In this document: piece after piece, positions 1,621 through 49,105 of the stretch | Layout of the letters: each line of letters starts with the position of its first letter | Position numbering within the stretch: the stretch's first letter is position 1 | Sequence record: NC_103567.1 | Length of the DNA stretch: 49,223 nucleotides | DNA from: a phage | Strand: one strand, 5' to 3' | Translations under genes and position numbers: made by a program | Notes under the pieces: generated by a model | What the model saw: only the letters and a program-made list of their open reading frames with translations | What the model was told of the DNA's origin: nothing | Databases searched by the model: none

Positions 1621-1641
1621 AATAGCACTTTTTGTTAAAAC
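1621..1641 (+). promoter_or_regulatory. 21-bp early-promoter-associated motif, class I (AATAGCACTTTTTGTTAAAAC)
   Basis: Matches the dispersed motif; TGG-CATAAT extended -10-like element about 22 bp downstream; gene follows. Confidence 0.6.
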
Positions 1642-2383: not shown

Positions 2384-2455
2384 GGTGATAAAGTGAGCAG
2401 TTGGCACAATGAGCACGTAATGCAATTCTACCGACACAGAATAAAAAAAATGATC

Positions 2456-2476
2456 AATAGCACGAATTGCTAAAAC
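2456..2476 (+). promoter_or_regulatory. 21-bp motif, class II (AATAGCACGAATTGCTAAAAC)
   Basis: Motif followed by inverted repeat GGGCTT...AAGCCC with TATAGT in its loop; gene at 2533. Confidence 0.6.
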
Positions 2477-2532
2477 AGAATTTTGGGCTTGCGGTATAGT
2501 AAGCCCATACCAAACAACGAGAGGATCACAAA

Positions 2533-3971: not shown

Positions 3972-3991
3972 ATAGCACTTTTTGCTAAAAC
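3971..3991 (+). promoter_or_regulatory. 21-bp motif, class I
   Basis: AATAGCACTTTTTGCTAAAAC then inverted repeat GGCACA...TGTGCC enclosing TGATAAAGT. Confidence 0.6.
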
Positions 3992-30033: not shown

Positions 30034-30053
30034 ATAGCACTTTTTGCTAAAAC
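30033..30053 (+). promoter_or_regulatory. 21-bp motif, class I
   Basis: AATAGCACTTTTTGCTAAAAC then 8-bp inverted repeat GATGCGTG...CACGCATC enclosing TGGTATACT. Confidence 0.6.
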
Positions 30054-37799: not shown

Positions 37800-38207
37800 A
37801 TGGTTACTGATAAAGGCGATTATCTGGAGTATTACGACAAATCAGATCCAGATGACAGAAAAGAGGAAGCGCACCAGGTTGATTCTTATTCATGGTTAAC
37901 ATATGAGTTTCCAATGTGGCTTGTTTGGCACACTAAAAACGAAGGGAAGAAAACAATAGGCACAGCAGTAAAGGATCAGCAAGCAGGTGTAAAAAAAGGA
38001 GTAAGCGACATTCTAATCCTGACTGGTTTTATTGGCTGCAAATATGCATTCATTGCAATTGAGCTTAAACGAGCCAACAAGAAAGGAACTAAAGTAAGCC
38101 AGGAACAAAGGGAATTCTTGCGCCGCGTTAGGGAATGCGGAGGATTTGCCGCAGTATGCTATGGTGTAGATCAAGTAAAATTGGCTATCGCAGACGCTAC
38201 AAAATAG
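37800..38207 (+). CDS. VRR-NUC-like PD-(D/E)xK nuclease
   Basis: 135 aa; DILILTGF...IAIELKRAN fits a D...ExK core; immediately follows the helicase. Confidence 0.6.
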   Translation: MVTDKGDYLEYYDKSDPDDRKEEAHQVDSYSWLTYEFPMWLVWHTKNEGKKTIGTAVKDQQAGVKKGVSDILILTGFIGCKYAFIAIELKRANKKGTKVSQEQREFLRRVRECGGFAAVCYGVDQVKLAIADATK

Positions 38208-38223
38208 CACTTTTTGTTAAAAC
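38203..38223 (+). promoter_or_regulatory. 21-bp motif, class I
   Basis: AATAGCACTTTTTGTTAAAAC then GGCGC...GCGCC and CATAAT. Confidence 0.6.
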
Positions 38224-38558: not shown

Positions 38559-39299
38559 ATGGCTAAGGATTTTCAGGACAAAGCAACCATTGATACTTTT
38601 GAGCCGGAAATGGATTTTCATGAACTGCAACACGGCAGATATTCAGATATTGCTTTACGTTCAGGCGGTCATTATCAGCCAGTTAGAGAAAACCCATTAT
38701 TTAAGGTTAGCGGCAACCGTTATGCAGGAAGTAAAACGCCGGACGTAGTGCGCGACTTGTGGGAAACTCCAGATGAAATTGTTGAATACCTTGCTGAACG
38801 TTACGGCAAATATGATCTTGACGCAGCAGCAACGGAAGATAATAAAAAATGCGATAAATTTTACAGCAAAGAAACAAACTGCTTAAAGCGTTGGTGGGGT
38901 AGCAATAAGCACGTTTGGTTAAATCCACCATACAGCAATCCAGATCCATTTATCAAAAAAGCAATTGAGCAGATGGAACACGGAAACCAGATTGATATTT
39001 TACTTCCGGCTGATAATTCAACTGCATGGTTTAGTGACGCACAAAAACATGCGGCAGAAATTATCTGGATTACTGGTGAAACCTGGAAGGATGAAGAAGG
39101 TCGCGAATATTCCAGAACTGGTCGAGTGGCGTTTATTTCTGGCATGACAGGTGAGCCAGTTAGCGGAAACAATAAAGGTAGTGTAATTTTTATCATGCGC
39201 CAATTGGAAGAAGGTGAGCAACAGCAAACGCACTATGTGAAGATTAGCGACATTTGCCCTTCCGTAAAAAATAAACGAGCCAAAGCGCGGAGTATTTAA
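38559..39299 (+). CDS. dam: DNA N6-adenine methyltransferase (phage Dam-like)
   Basis: 246 aa; VWLNPPYS carries the (D/N)PPY catalytic motif of N6-adenine methyltransferases. Confidence 0.8.
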   Translation: MAKDFQDKATIDTFEPEMDFHELQHGRYSDIALRSGGHYQPVRENPLFKVSGNRYAGSKTPDVVRDLWETPDEIVEYLAERYGKYDLDAAATEDNKKCDKFYSKETNCLKRWWGSNKHVWLNPPYSNPDPFIKKAIEQMEHGNQIDILLPADNSTAWFSDAQKHAAEIIWITGETWKDEEGREYSRTGRVAFISGMTGEPVSGNNKGSVIFIMRQLEEGEQQQTHYVKISDICPSVKNKRAKARSI

Positions 39300-42697: not shown

Positions 42698-42718
42698 GTT
42701 TTAACAAAAAGTGCTATT
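42698..42718 (-). promoter_or_regulatory. 21-bp motif, class I (reverse complement)
   Basis: GTTTTAACAAAAAGTGCTATT on the plus strand; an inverted repeat lies downstream in the direction of transcription. Confidence 0.6.
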
Positions 42719-44861: not shown

Positions 44862-44882
44862 CTTTTAGCAATTCGTGCTATT
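44862..44882 (-). promoter_or_regulatory. 21-bp motif, class II (reverse complement)
   Basis: CTTTTAGCAATTCGTGCTATT on the plus strand upstream of the 526-aa gene. Confidence 0.6.
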
Positions 44883-45541: not shown

Positions 45542-45562
45542 GTTTTAACAAAAAGTGCTATT
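45542..45562 (-). promoter_or_regulatory. 21-bp motif, class I (reverse complement)
   Basis: GTTTTAACAAAAAGTGCTATT on the plus strand. Confidence 0.6.
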
Positions 45563-46253
45563 TCTGATTTGCCAGGCATACAGCAAGCGCAAAGCCGCGC
45601 GGAGTGAGTGAGCGGATCAGCTTTGTTCGCTTAGACTTGCCGCCGAGCTTTTGCCAGCCTGGATTGTTGTTCCCTGTTTGCAATACTGCGTTTGTATCCG
45701 GCATTACAAAGCCGTTACCCGTCCAAAGACAAGTTTTTTTGGTGTACGCATCGCGAGCGGGAATGATTTCAGGAAAGTGAGGATGTTTATCATCTTCCGG
45801 CAACAGACCTCCAAACGCGCAAGGATGAAAGATAAAATCAGGTTGCCGCCACATTGACGACAGAACACTAACAGGATTCTCAATCATGTATGGAACGTTA
45901 AACCGATCCGCAATATTGGCAGCAATCTTTGCCGTTTCAACCGCCTTTTTCTGGAAGTCTGGATCACGTTCACGCTTTGCTGCAAAGTGACGCGATCCGC
46001 TAACAGCTAAATCAGTGCATGGAGGGAATGCAATAATAAAATCTGGAGTGCCAAAGACGCGCATCATTGCGTTATGCTGGAATGATAATCCGATCCACTC
46101 ATTCAAATAAACTATGTTGGGATGAGTCACGCGCACTGATTGGTAATCACCATGATCAGCACCGTCGAAATTAAAGCACAGCACTTTGTGACCACGTTCA
46201 GCCCACGGCAACGCAGCATAACCAGAACCATCAAATAGTGAGAAAATAAGCAT
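45558..46253 (-). CDS. truncated C5-cytosine-methyltransferase-like protein (motifs I, IV, VI present; no recognisable target-recognition domain)
   Basis: 231 aa; SLFDGSGYA (motif I FxGxG-like), FPPCTDLAVSG (motif IV, catalytic Pro-Cys), MIENPVS (motif VI ENV-like), spaced as in C5-MTases. Confidence 0.5.
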   Translation of the reverse strand: MLIFSLFDGSGYAALPWAERGHKVLCFNFDGADHGDYQSVRVTHPNIVYLNEWIGLSFQHNAMMRVFGTPDFIIAFPPCTDLAVSGSRHFAAKRERDPDFQKKAVETAKIAANIADRFNVPYMIENPVSVLSSMWRQPDFIFHPCAFGGLLPEDDKHPHFPEIIPARDAYTKKTCLWTGNGFVMPDTNAVLQTGNNNPGWQKLGGKSKRTKLIRSLTPRGFALAVCLANQK

Positions 46254-46361
46254 GTTTAAATCCTTTCTGTATTACCTTGCAAGGCATTTTGTTTGTAGGT
46301 GTGACAATCGTATTAGTTACGGCCTGAAATCGCGACATAATGCGAAACAGGCCTCTATTTT

Positions 46362-46439
46362 TTACTTACAGAATGGGCATGTTGTTTTATCCCCGCTTCC
46401 GCCGTGTTTTGGACAGCAAATTTTTTCGATAGGTGTCAT
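46362..46439 (-). CDS. 25-aa zinc-ribbon-like micropeptide
   Basis: AAGGAG RBS overlapping the upstream stop; hand translation MTPIEKICCPKHGGSGDKTTCPFCK; coordinates approximate. Confidence 0.35.
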   Translation of the reverse strand: MTPIEKICCPKHGGSGDKTTCPFCK

Positions 46440-46451
46440 TTTAAATACTCC

Positions 46452-46694
46452 TTAGAATGGGAAACAACGCTTGCAAGATGGATCGAAGTTACAACCGCAA
46501 TCATTGATTATTGCGTTAGGATCAGCAAGCATCACGCTACTTTCTTGATCCATATCCATAGCGCCTAATGCGTCATCAAGCGTTATTTCAAGATAGGCAA
46601 CTTTAAGCGCCCATTCCTTGTTGAGTCCAGCCGCCTCCGCTTCATGTAGGCGAGCAAAGAAAGCATCTTGAACCATATCAACCCCACTTCTCAA
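46452..46694 (-). CDS. hypothetical protein with C-terminal Cys cluster
   Basis: 80-aa ORF ending CGCNFDPSCKRCFPF; overlaps the upstream gene. Confidence 0.5.
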   Translation of the reverse strand: MRSGVDMVQDAFFARLHEAEAAGLNKEWALKVAYLEITLDDALGAMDMDQESSVMLADPNAIINDCGCNFDPSCKRCFPF

Positions 46695-46899
46695 TAAACA
46701 TGCTCATTTCGTCAATCATCGCGTAAGCATCGCTTTCAGTCATGCGACGTATTCTTCCGCCTGGGTGTTCGCCAACAGCGTAACCAGTTTTTACGCGGGT
46801 AATCGTTAACTGATGGAATCCAGAATCGCGATCCATTTTCAAAACTACTTTCCCGTGAGCTTTGACAATGTTCATGATGGATTCAGTTTTCAGTTTCAT
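46678..46899 (-). CDS. hypothetical protein
   Basis: 73-aa ORF; GGAGAA RBS on the minus strand; motif copy upstream. Confidence 0.55.
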   Translation of the reverse strand: MKLKTESIMNIVKAHGKVVLKMDRDSGFHQLTITRVKTGYAVGEHPGGRIRRMTESDAYAMIDEMSMFIEKWG

Positions 46900-46953
46900 T
46901 TTTGATTCTCCATTTTGTTTGTGTGAAAGTATGATACCAGTCAGAGCGATATC

Positions 46954-46975
46954 GTTTTTAGCAATTCGTGCTGTT
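46954..46975 (-). promoter_or_regulatory. 21-bp motif, class II variant (reverse complement)
   Basis: GTTTTTAGCAATTCGTGCTGTT on the plus strand. Confidence 0.5.
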
Positions 46976-47121
46976 TACGGCGATAAACGGATAGCCTGTT
47001 AAATCTGCATTTCTATAACGTGCAGACCTAACCCAACAGCCTCCTTTGCTCATAATTAAAGCGTTTTTATGACGCAGGTTCACGCGGTAAATTCTTCCGG
47101 TTTTTATATTTTTGAAGTAGG

Positions 47122-47367
47122 TCATAATTTAACCTCATGATATTCTATGAATTCTTGCACATATGCGCATTCGCGCGGCGACTCTTGGCCTTTTAGCACT
47201 TCACAGCCACTATTAAACAGATAGCAGTGCTGGCAAAGGTTGCCGCCTACGTTTTCCTCAGCGATCTGAATTCCGGTACACAAGCCGCCGCCAAACCTAT
47301 GAACGAAATGATAAGCGGAACACCTGCAATTAATTTGCCTACGCTTTCTTTTTGCCGTGGTTTTCAT
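47122..47367 (-). CDS. hypothetical Cys-rich protein (uncertain)
   Basis: 81-aa ORF with 8 Cys; overlaps the 3-prime end of the HNH gene by about 29 nt. Confidence 0.35.
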   Translation of the reverse strand: MKTTAKRKRRQINCRCSAYHFVHRFGGGLCTGIQIAEENVGGNLCQHCYLFNSGCEVLKGQESPRECAYVQEFIEYHEVKL

Positions 47368-47851
47368 GAAAACCCCTGTTTATTTTTTCTCTCTCAATAG
47401 CCATGCTAGCTAATTCAGGAGAATCAAAAAGACCAATATGGATTTCTTTTCCTTCTACTTTTAATCTTGCTCTCCATTTTTTAGCTACGGAATGCCACGA
47501 AACACCGTTAAACCCTGATTTATTTGCTTTGCAATATGATTGATTTTTACCGTTTTCATTTGCACTAACAAGGCGTAGGTTTTCTATCCTGTTATCAATT
47601 CTGTCGTGGTTTATATGATCAATCTGCATTCCTTCTGGAATTTTGCCATTATGCATTTCCCAAACGATTCGATGCGCAAGATAACTTTTATCATTCAATG
47701 TTATCTCTATGTATCCATCATTTCTAATGCTTCCTGCAACTTTTCCAGCCCACTTTTTATTCCATGCAGAATCTCTATATGATCTTATGTTTGTGCGCGG
47801 CTTTCTTATAAGATTACCGCAATCATATATAAAAAAGTCGTGCCAATTCAT
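47339..47851 (-). CDS. HNH homing endonuclease with AP2-like DNA-binding domain
   Basis: 170 aa; YLAHRIVWEMHNG...DHINHDRIDNRIENLRLVSANEN is an HNH motif; C-terminal FNGVSWHSVAKKWRARLKVEGKEIHIGLF looks like an AP2 domain. Confidence 0.75.
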   Translation of the reverse strand: MNWHDFFIYDCGNLIRKPRTNIRSYRDSAWNKKWAGKVAGSIRNDGYIEITLNDKSYLAHRIVWEMHNGKIPEGMQIDHINHDRIDNRIENLRLVSANENGKNQSYCKANKSGFNGVSWHSVAKKWRARLKVEGKEIHIGLFDSPELASMAIEREKINRGFHENHGKKKA

Positions 47852-47905: not shown

Positions 47906-47926
47906 GCTTTTAACAAAAAGTGCTAT
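47906..47926 (-). promoter_or_regulatory. 21-bp motif, class I (reverse complement)
   Basis: CTTTTAACAAAAAGTGCTATT on the plus strand upstream of the HNH gene. Confidence 0.6.
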
Positions 47927-48670: not shown

Positions 48671-48724
48671 CGTTAATCTCCTGATTGGTTTCGATGGGGC
48701 AACTATATCAAGATACCCCGATCC

Positions 48725-48746
48725 TTTTTTAGCAATTCGTGCTATT
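48725..48746 (-). promoter_or_regulatory. 21-bp motif, class II (reverse complement)
   Basis: TTTTTTAGCAATTCGTGCTATT on the plus strand. Confidence 0.6.
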
Positions 48747-49029
48747 AGCCAAACGCTTTAATTTCGAAATCTTCTTCTGCCTGATTAGCAACCGCCGTGA
48801 ACATTTGCTCAAGAGTTTCAAAGCCGAAATGTTTAGCGATCTCATAAGCCGCTTTACCTTCCGTCTGCATGTTTAGCGCTTCGCAATAGTGCATTTCCAG
48901 ATTGTTCAGGTATTTGTTGCCAGTTGGGATTGCTGCGTCGATTTTGTCCCACACGATCCAAAAGTTTGTTTTGTCAGCCGCTGCGAGTACAAAGTTTGTC
49001 TTGTCTACTGCAATCACTAAGTTTTCCAT
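48745..49029 (-). CDS. hypothetical protein with internal short duplication
   Basis: ORF track 48745-49065; likely start at internal ATG 49029 with GAGGA RBS; contains VIAVDKTNFVLAAADKTNFWIVW. Confidence 0.55.
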   Translation of the reverse strand: MENLVIAVDKTNFVLAAADKTNFWIVWDKIDAAIPTGNKYLNNLEMHYCEALNMQTEGKAAYEIAKHFGFETLEQMFTAVANQAEEDFEIKAFG

Positions 49030-49084: not shown

Positions 49085-49105
49085 GTTTTAACAAAAAGTG
49101 CTATT
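49085..49105 (-). promoter_or_regulatory. 21-bp motif, class I (reverse complement)
   Basis: GTTTTAACAAAAAGTGCTATT on the plus strand; outermost leftward promoter candidate. Confidence 0.6.

Follow-up and report, generated by a model that had tools for sequence, protein, structure and literature searches.

A compact phage DNA cytosine-C5 methyltransferase, probably complete without its small neighbours, and a conserved 25-codon micro-gene in a Tlsvirus genome

Introduction

Can a protein of only 231 residues that carries the signature motifs of DNA cytosine-C5 methyltransferases (C5-MTases), and lacks the large target-recognition domain (TRD) of enzymes such as Escherichia coli Dcm, modify DNA by itself, or does it depend on the small genes encoded beside it? 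We addressed this question in a 49,223-bp stretch of phage DNA (GC 42.9%), the whole of which is referred to here as the window. An initial annotation had described the protein as a truncated enzyme, perhaps split and in need of small partner subunits, and as an unusual addition to a phage that already carries Dam. Our analysis points instead to a complete, self-sufficient, SAM-dependent DNA C5-MTase of the compact “phage Dcm” family (PHROG 757), an assignment that we consider very probable. The methyltransferase itself was already known, being an annotated member of a family that has been characterised through the phage K42 enzyme; the fresh item at this locus is a 25-codon micro-gene.

Genomic setting of the locus

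The window is a Tlsvirus genome (Drexlerviridae, subfamily Tempevirinae). The region under study is 98-99% identical to the Tlsvirus phages phSE-2, PCST1, Stevie, and Sazh, and 93% identical to phage TLS. The window also encodes Dam (38559-39296, plus strand), with 98% identity to TLS Dam. The TLS annotation lists both dam and dcm, and the literature describes the encoding of Dam plus Dcm as common among, and typical of, the Drexlerviridae, so the presence of a cytosine enzyme beside Dam is not the oddity it had been taken for. An Rfam scan over the whole window gave no match.

The methyltransferase gene is the last of four genes that lie on one strand between two copies of a repeated motif (Table 1). 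All of the open reading frames and motifs listed in the initial annotation were recovered where it had placed them.

Table 1 Features of the four-gene cassette and its borders
Feature	Position in window	Strand	Basis and remarks
Repeated motif copy, ACAGCACGAATTGCTAAAA	46956-46974	(-)	ATAGCAC-N5-GYTAAAA; heads the four-gene cassette, upstream of the 73-aa ORF
73-aa protein, PHROG 4344 (function unknown)	46678-46899	(-)	PHROG E=6.8e-38
74-aa acidic protein, PHROG 9323 (function unknown)	46452-46676	(-)	PHROG E=1.4e-45, aligned from residue 7
25-codon micro-gene, MTPIEKICCPKHGGSGDKTTCPFCK	46362-46439	(-)	Own AAGGAG Shine-Dalgarno sequence
Leader, micro-gene to methyltransferase start	46254-46361	(-)	108 nt; GGCCTG...CAGGCC hairpin; AAAGGA ribosome-binding site
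231-aa compact DNA cytosine-C5 methyltransferase (“phage Dcm”, PHROG 757), predicted	45558-46253	(-)	ORF, motifs, PHROG match
Repeated motif, next copy, ATAGCACTTTTTGTTAAAA	45543-45561	(-)	Overlaps the methyltransferase TAG stop; a hairpin follows

The methyltransferase belongs to a large family of similarly short proteins

Residues 1-230 of the protein align with positions 15-219 of the 247-position profile of PHROG 757, annotated “DNA methyltransferase” (E=9.1e-87), and an identical sequence is deposited as QRV71276.1, [quoted passage not shown]. Among 5.8 billion proteins, the family comprises 5,404 clusters (90% identity; E≤0.001), the best 120 of which all measure 215-262 aa; a search of 50%-identity representatives yielded 1,202 clusters, mostly of similar length. 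By tblastn, homologs occur in 1,533 of 50,697 phage records, with carriers among the Drexlerviridae, Kagunavirus, Phapecoctavirus, rV5 relatives, Klebsiella Webervirus, and several large myoviruses, and for many of these homologs the existing annotation reads cytosine methyltransferase or Dcm. Taken together, the cluster, tblastn, and PHROG 757 data indicate that this very common phage family has a native size of about 230 aa, and the description of the protein as truncated cannot be maintained.

The product of TLS dcm (PTLS_gp75, YP_001285564.1) is 86% identical to the window protein and sits in the same gene order. It is annotated as 259 aa from an upstream in-frame start, whereas in the window a stop codon closes this extension, so that the product is 231 aa. 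A 35-aa ORF that lies over the methyltransferase start (46231-46338) shows similarity that decays much faster than that of the methyltransferase and was treated as non-coding.

Pfam and NCBIfam scans of the 231-aa protein returned no match even at E≤1, and its score does not reach the gathering threshold of PF00145. Three family members that are 58-60% identical to it do pass PF00145, with 24.7-28.5 bits against a cut-off of 22 over profile positions 4-94 (motifs I-IV), and this model matches 5 of 79 diverse members of the family. Neither phmmer nor the family profile found a significant match among PDB sequences, where DNMT2 appeared at E=0.14 amid Rossmann-fold noise. The family has thus diverged too far to be picked up directly by Pfam or NCBIfam, or to be matched by sequence to solved structures.

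Conserved motifs and predicted fold

Three segments of the protein correspond to motifs I, IV, and VI of C5-MTases: SLFDGSGYA (residues 5-13), FPPCTDLAVSG (residues 76-86), and MIENPVS (residues 123-129). Within motif I (F7-D8-G9-S10-G11), Ser10 and Gly11 are invariant across 57 homologs, while Phe7, Asp8, and Gly9 are at least 90% conserved. Pro78 and Cys79 of motif IV are invariant in the same 57 sequences and at least 90% conserved in a diverse set of 79. In motif VI (E125-N126-P127-V128), the Glu, Asn, and Pro are invariant in the 57 homologs, and Pro127 is also invariant in the 79. Motif I of the family aligns with that of DNMT2, and motif IV aligns with PPCQ in DNMT2 and with FPCQ in E. 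coli Dcm. Since all three motifs are invariant or nearly so across the 57 homologs, they are not chance matches. Also conserved is the strand K172-K173-T-C-L-W, the equivalent of which in the K42 enzyme is taken to bind the substrate. No canonical motif VIII (QxRxR) could be identified in the protein.

The initial annotation held that the protein left no room for a TRD or for motifs IX and X. The 57 homologs lend this view no support: they share a nearly invariant C-terminal block, GGKS-RTK-IRSLTPRGFA-AV, which may be the counterpart of motifs IX/X, together with a loop at residues ~186-205 that is short and variable. The closest solved fold, moreover, is that of DNMT3. DNMT3 enzymes, too, have a minimal TRD.

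An AlphaFold2 model of the methyltransferase alone, computed with the 57 homologs (pLDDT 91.7, pTM 0.90), displays a class I SAM-methyltransferase fold with C5-MTase topology. Foldseek comparison with the PDB returned the catalytic domains of DNMT3A and DNMT3B and the CP-933R prophage methyltransferase 3g7u, all with a probability of 1.00, and in a viral structure library the model matches phage “DNA-cytosine methylases”. The model fold and the conservation across 57 homologs bear out the C5-MTase-like character first suggested by the motifs. The likeness to the DNMT3A/DNMT3B catalytic domains (e.g. 6u8p, 5yx2) is one of structure at 13-19% sequence identity; the latter are ~285-aa domains that work as oligomers with DNMT3L. 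Two segments of the model have lower confidence, residues 81-90, which directly follow the Pro-Cys motif, and residues 191-210, which span the variable loop and then a basic stretch. These may be flexible loops that contact DNA and, if taken as such, they make it probable that a minimal DNA-recognition element exists within the 231 residues.

By the family chemistry, motif I would bind SAM, Cys79 of the Pro-Cys motif would attack C6 of a flipped-out cytosine, and Glu125 of the ENPV motif would protonate N3, after which the methyl group would pass to C5. DNA recognition would fall to the short variable loop and the basic GGKS-RTK-IRSLTPRGFA tail, with no large TRD involved.

The very small size of the protein, its lack of a Pfam match, and the origin of its closest solved structures in DNMT3-DNMT3L complexes would also suit a catalytically inactive or regulatory protein that retains the methyltransferase fold for a non-enzymatic, DNMT3L-like role. 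Such a role appears extremely unlikely given that the SAM-binding glycines, the Pro-Cys pair, and the ENP residues are invariant or nearly so across the sets of 57 and 79 homologs, and that mutation of catalytic residues abolishes the function of the K42 enzyme (bioRxiv 10.1101/2023.08.16.553469).

Relationship to K42 Dcm and the retron Ec86/Eco1

The functional evidence for this family comes from phage K42, a 95%-identical relative of KarlJaspers/Bas06 (bioRxiv 10.1101/2023.08.16.553469). In that study, all four phages that escaped the retron Ec86 carried lesions in or just upstream of the 711-bp K42 dcm gene, and such a Dcm was present in 34 of 35 retron-sensitive phages (bioRxiv 10.1101/2023.08.16.553469). 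On its own, pBAD-expressed K42 Dcm was toxic to cells only if they carried Ec86, and it raised the level of 5mC in Ec86 msDNA, as measured by LC-MS; a C82A/E128A/K175A/K176A mutant was inert (bioRxiv 10.1101/2023.08.16.553469). The retron, Ec86/Eco1, is found in BL21(DE3) (bioRxiv 10.1101/2023.08.16.553469), and the activation of Eco1 by a phage cytosine methyltransferase has been restated in a 2026 paper.

We connected the window protein to K42 Dcm by way of the Hanrivervirus phage slyngel. The genes of phage Henu8 have best matches that include proteins of KarlJaspers together with those of slyngel and pSf-1, which points to KarlJaspers being of the Hanrivervirus type. In slyngel, the homolog is 711 bp long, contains all of C82, E128, K175, and K176, and shares 65% identity with the window protein over its full length, with C79, E125, K172, and K173 as the equivalent residues. 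From gene length, residue numbering, and phage relatedness we infer, with considerable strength, that the window protein is an ortholog of K42 Dcm. The two proteins (236 aa in K42, 231 aa in the window) would then be ~65% identical, a value obtained through slyngel. Both come from Tempevirinae, and they have in common the catalytic Cys, the ENP Glu, the KK pair, and a position upstream of a helicase module; the phages differ in genus, K42 being a Hanrivervirus and the window phage a Tlsvirus. The 25-codon micro-gene was not found in the 3.7-kb stretch of slyngel that was examined.

In the infected cell, the enzyme would likely methylate the phage DNA, with Dcm-type CCWGG as the probable target. 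Methylation of GATC by the phage Dam would add to this, and the two would jointly shield the genome from host restriction. The protection would come at a cost, as methyltransferase activity can be sensed by the retron Ec86/Eco1; carriage of a Dcm-like enzyme accordingly predicts that the window phage is sensitive to this retron.

Target specificity

The CCWGG specificity of the K42 enzyme is assumed from E. coli Dcm, and its sole support is that mutation of CCTGG in the msDNA abolishes K42-triggered defence (bioRxiv 10.1101/2023.08.16.553469). Because a dcm+ host does not by itself trigger the retron, the enzyme may in truth have another specificity or substrate preference. The possibility that the C5-MTase fold serves a different chemistry or substrate, for example carboxymethyl transfer, or action on RNA or single-stranded DNA, strikes us as improbable, and we retain DNA cytosine-C5 methylation as the preferred activity.

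The site content of the window offers an indirect view of specificity. CCWGG is present at 109 sites, with an observed-to-expected ratio (O/E) of 1.10, and GATC has an O/E of 1.08, so that neither site is avoided. Three other sites are scarce: CCSGG occurs twice against 15.1 expected (O/E 0.13), GGWCC twice against 12.7 (O/E 0.16), and GGSCC not at all against 8.9 (O/E 0). Many 6-bp palindromes are wholly absent from the window. This pattern is circumstantial and would fit protective methylation at GATC and CCWGG, to which host Dcm could contribute.

E. coli Dcm and EcoRII-type enzymes resemble the window protein in their chemistry (SAM and a Pro-Cys nucleophile) and in the presumed CCWGG target, but E. 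coli Dcm is a 472-aa protein with a large TRD. Aligned by hhalign with MG1655 Dcm, the family profile matched over 31 columns at motif IV only (probability 0.5%, E=0.13). We therefore reject orthology with E. coli Dcm; the name “Dcm” is functional when applied to the phage family.

As an annotation, the methyltransferase is routine: a phage with Dam and a Dcm-like enzyme, for which protection from restriction at GATC and probably CCWGG is predicted. What interest remains lies in how a 231-aa enzyme with almost no TRD reads its site, in the true identity of that site, and in the 25-codon micro-gene.

Organisation of the cassette

The initial annotation proposed that the four genes are co-transcribed from a motif at about 46954. 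The motif does exist: the window contains 22 copies of ATAGCAC-N5-GYTAAAA, where 1.36 would be expected by chance. The copies are intergenic and, for those checked against the ORF list or the annotation of TLS, lie on the same strand as the flanking genes. The 17-mer near 46928-46944 that had originally been pointed to is not itself repeated, whereas the adjacent ATAGCAC-N5-GYTAAAA is. The copy at the head of the cassette is likely a promoter or regulatory element, and with the copy that overlaps the methyltransferase stop codon the cassette ends and the next unit begins. Tight spacing on one strand between consecutive copies of the motif is consistent with a single transcription unit for the four genes. 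Co-transcription is thus plausible, with the caveat that a generic scan for sigma-70 promoters and terminators gave no signal above chance. The leader ahead of the methyltransferase is conserved whether or not a phage carries the micro-gene and could contain a promoter of its own; its predicted folding is not significant (z-score -1.49).

The 73-aa protein has no Pfam or NCBIfam match, and in about 40 of 82 loci a homolog of it precedes the methyltransferase gene. The next gene was initially called as an 80-aa ORF ending in a Cys cluster (46452-46694, minus strand, TTG start). As the PHROG alignment begins only at residue 7 of this ORF and relatives annotate a gene of 225 nt, the real product is most likely the 74-aa protein that starts with the ATG at 46676, 1 nt past the stop codon of the 73-aa gene (TGAtATG). 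It combines a conserved helical N-terminal half with a C-terminal CxC-x5-CxxC motif, with conservation of at least 90% for the four Cys. Its AlphaFold model (pLDDT 61) was too poor for a fold search. The family comprises 68 clusters, and those with long contigs are on contigs of ~50 kb.

The small genes as candidate subunits

Several features of the locus are those to be expected if the protein were a truncated or split cytosine-modifying enzyme, with the Cys-rich small proteins or the micropeptide supplying the DNA-recognition or structural subunits that it needs. Between two copies of the motif, the genes are closely packed on a single strand, the order of the 74-aa gene followed by the methyltransferase is kept in ~38 Tempevirinae-type loci, and the methyltransferase has no large TRD. 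The micro-gene also adjoins the methyltransferase in several phages and on either side, lying downstream of it in L019, L027, and Klebsiella phage P-K7R.

The distribution of the genes nevertheless tells against obligate partnership. About half of 80 methyltransferase loci on viral contigs have no 73-aa or 74-aa homolog within 2.5 kb, the 68 clusters of the 74-aa family compare with more than 5,400 for the methyltransferase, and the micro-gene was detected by tblastn in 137 phage records against the 1,533 that hold a methyltransferase homolog. The reverse also occurs. Skatevirus Seszw_1 carries the micro-gene after an anti-restriction gene and a ParB-like gene, and a search of this phage found no methyltransferase homolog (best E 0.79). 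The context is equally unrelated in the T4-like phages RB43 and CfP1, where the micro-gene follows a NadR/Nudix-like gene, and in Tunavirus Sfin-1, where it sits among small genes of unknown function. Most methyltransferase homologs, in short, have none of the three small neighbours.

The limited spread of the neighbours and the in vivo activity of K42 Dcm expressed by itself (bioRxiv 10.1101/2023.08.16.553469) together rule against the split-enzyme model, which we regard as very improbable, and the proposal of small partner subunits is abandoned. The synteny within Tempevirinae is more simply explained by shared ancestry. With the 231-aa protein as a self-sufficient enzyme, the 73-aa, 74-aa, and 25-aa genes would be independent accessory genes that share its transcription unit. 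Judged by its varied genomic contexts and its presence in Seszw_1 without a methyltransferase, the micro-gene in particular is an independent and mobile unit.

A conserved 25-codon micro-gene

The micro-gene has largely escaped annotation. Most of the tblastn matches listed have no annotated feature beneath them, no model in Pfam or PHROGs matches the 25-aa peptide, and the exact sequence encoded in the window is absent from a collection of 15 billion proteins. The gene has been overlooked because gene callers skip ORFs of fewer than 30 codons.

Comparison of its DNA versions argues for a functional coding sequence. There are 12 distinct versions, each exactly 25 codons long, with a mean pS of 0.67 against a mean pN of 0.10 (pN/pS ~0.15). 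Their consensus is MTPIEK-x-x-C-x-x-HGGSG-x-x-x-x-CP[FY]C[KR], in which C9, H12, C21, and C24 are present in 12 of 12 versions. The gene is, moreover, a clean presence/absence indel of ~91 bp that comprises the ribosome-binding site and the ORF and is flanked by the 74-aa gene's stop codon and the conserved 108-nt methyltransferase leader. We consider it likely that the micro-gene is genuinely translated and under selection. Selection on the 25 codons, the PHROG matches of its neighbours, and the conserved Cys residues of the 74-aa protein uphold the view that the small ORFs of the cassette are real genes. The micro-gene represents a small but real annotation gap, being under strong purifying selection, present in at least four phage lineages, and missing from most of the GenBank records examined.

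The peptide is probably a zinc knuckle of the Cys-His-Cys-Cys kind, formed by C9, H12, C21, and C24. Tentatively, we suggest that the micro-gene is an autonomous, horizontally mobile gene whose zinc-knuckle peptide acts on a host target, for example in an anti-defence or regulatory capacity, although we would not favour this over other functions at present. The anti-restriction protein Stp of T4 is also phage-encoded and, at 26 aa, similar in size, but it shows no evident sequence resemblance to the 25-aa peptide on inspection and lacks its Cys/His pattern; an anti-defence role for the peptide is speculation. As a separate observation, the window contains a homolog of Stp at 2393-2470.

Repeated motif and methyltransferase leader

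The motif ATAGCAC-N5-GYTAAAA occurs 22 times in the window against 1.4 copies expected. Its copies are intergenic, those that were compared share the strand of the adjoining genes, and downstream of several lie a hairpin and a -10-like hexamer about 22 nt past TTG(C/T)TA. The motif is probably a phage promoter or regulatory signal that bounds transcription units. In three ORFs the 3′ end overlaps its GAATT variant, AAYAGCACGAATTGCTAA, and all three therefore terminate in ...NSTNC*.

The 108-nt leader upstream of the compact Dcm-like methyltransferase gene is kept in Tempevirinae-type loci with or without the micro-gene, the 25-codon ORF that probably encodes a zinc knuckle. Its sequence includes a hairpin, GGCCTG...CAGGCC, as well as the hexamer CATTAT, and its fold z-score is only -1.49. 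The leader may serve as a promoter of its own or act as a regulatory RNA.

Selected features of the window and micro-gene homologs in other phages (coordinates of the latter are internal to each fetched stretch)
Feature	Sequence	Position	Strand	Context
ATAGCAC-N5-GYTAAAA, examples from 22 sites	window	1622-1640, 3972-3990, 30034-30052, 38204-38222	+	
ATAGCAC-N5-GYTAAAA, examples from 22 sites	window	42699-42717, 44863-44881, 45543-45561, 46956-46974, 47908-47926, 48727-48745, 49086-49104	-	
GAATT variant	window	2456-2478	+	3′ end of Stp-like peptide ORF
GAATT variant	window	46953-46975	-	3′ end of 55-aa ORF 46958-47125
GAATT variant	window	48724-48746	-	3′ end of 38-aa ORF 48729-48845
Stp-like ORF	window	2393-2470	+	
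Methyltransferase leader	window	46254-46361	-	upstream of methyltransferase
73-aa protein	window	46678-46899	-	
HNH endonuclease	window	47339-47851	-	
Micro-gene homolog	Seszw_1, L084	2501-2575		directly after 'anti-restriction protein' gene and ParB-like gene
Micro-gene homolog	RB43, L083	2501-2575		after NadR/Nudix-like gene, before terminator
Micro-gene homolog	CfP1, L089	1801-1875		after NadR/Nudix-like gene, before terminator
Micro-gene homolog	Sfin-1, L085	2501-2575		unannotated gap
Micro-gene homolog	P-K7R, L091	1801-1875		unannotated gap

Small proteins and their annotation

Homologs of the 25-aa micro-gene product occupy unannotated gaps in the genomes of unrelated phages. A second micropeptide gene of the window genome, the Stp-like ORF, encodes 26 residues with 92% identity to the 'stp' product of the related phage TLS, annotated there as activating the PrrC anticodon nuclease of the host.

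Homologs of the 73-aa protein encoded upstream of the methyltransferase are named 'polyribonucleotide nucleotidyltransferase' in some GenBank records and 'DUF2543' in one metagenome-assembled record, and the neighboring 74-aa protein is labelled 'cytosine DNA methylase' in phage Motto. Pfam and PHROG scans gave no support for any of these names, which therefore look like annotation errors passed from record to record.

HNH endonuclease and restriction-site avoidance

The HNH homing-type endonuclease matches Pfam HNH_3 at E=5e-23 and has a weak AP2-like match; TLS also carries it, under the name endZ. The alignment of the closest relatives to the query ends at about 47300, and the gene appears to be absent from them.

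Restriction sites are strongly avoided across the whole window. Many 6-bp palindromes do not occur at all (for example AAGCTT, CGATCG, CCGCGG, CTGCAG and CACGTG), and observed/expected ratios are low for GGCC (0.44), CTAG (0.34), GGSCC (0), CCSGG (0.13) and GGWCC (0.16); GATC (1.08) and CCWGG (1.10) are not avoided.
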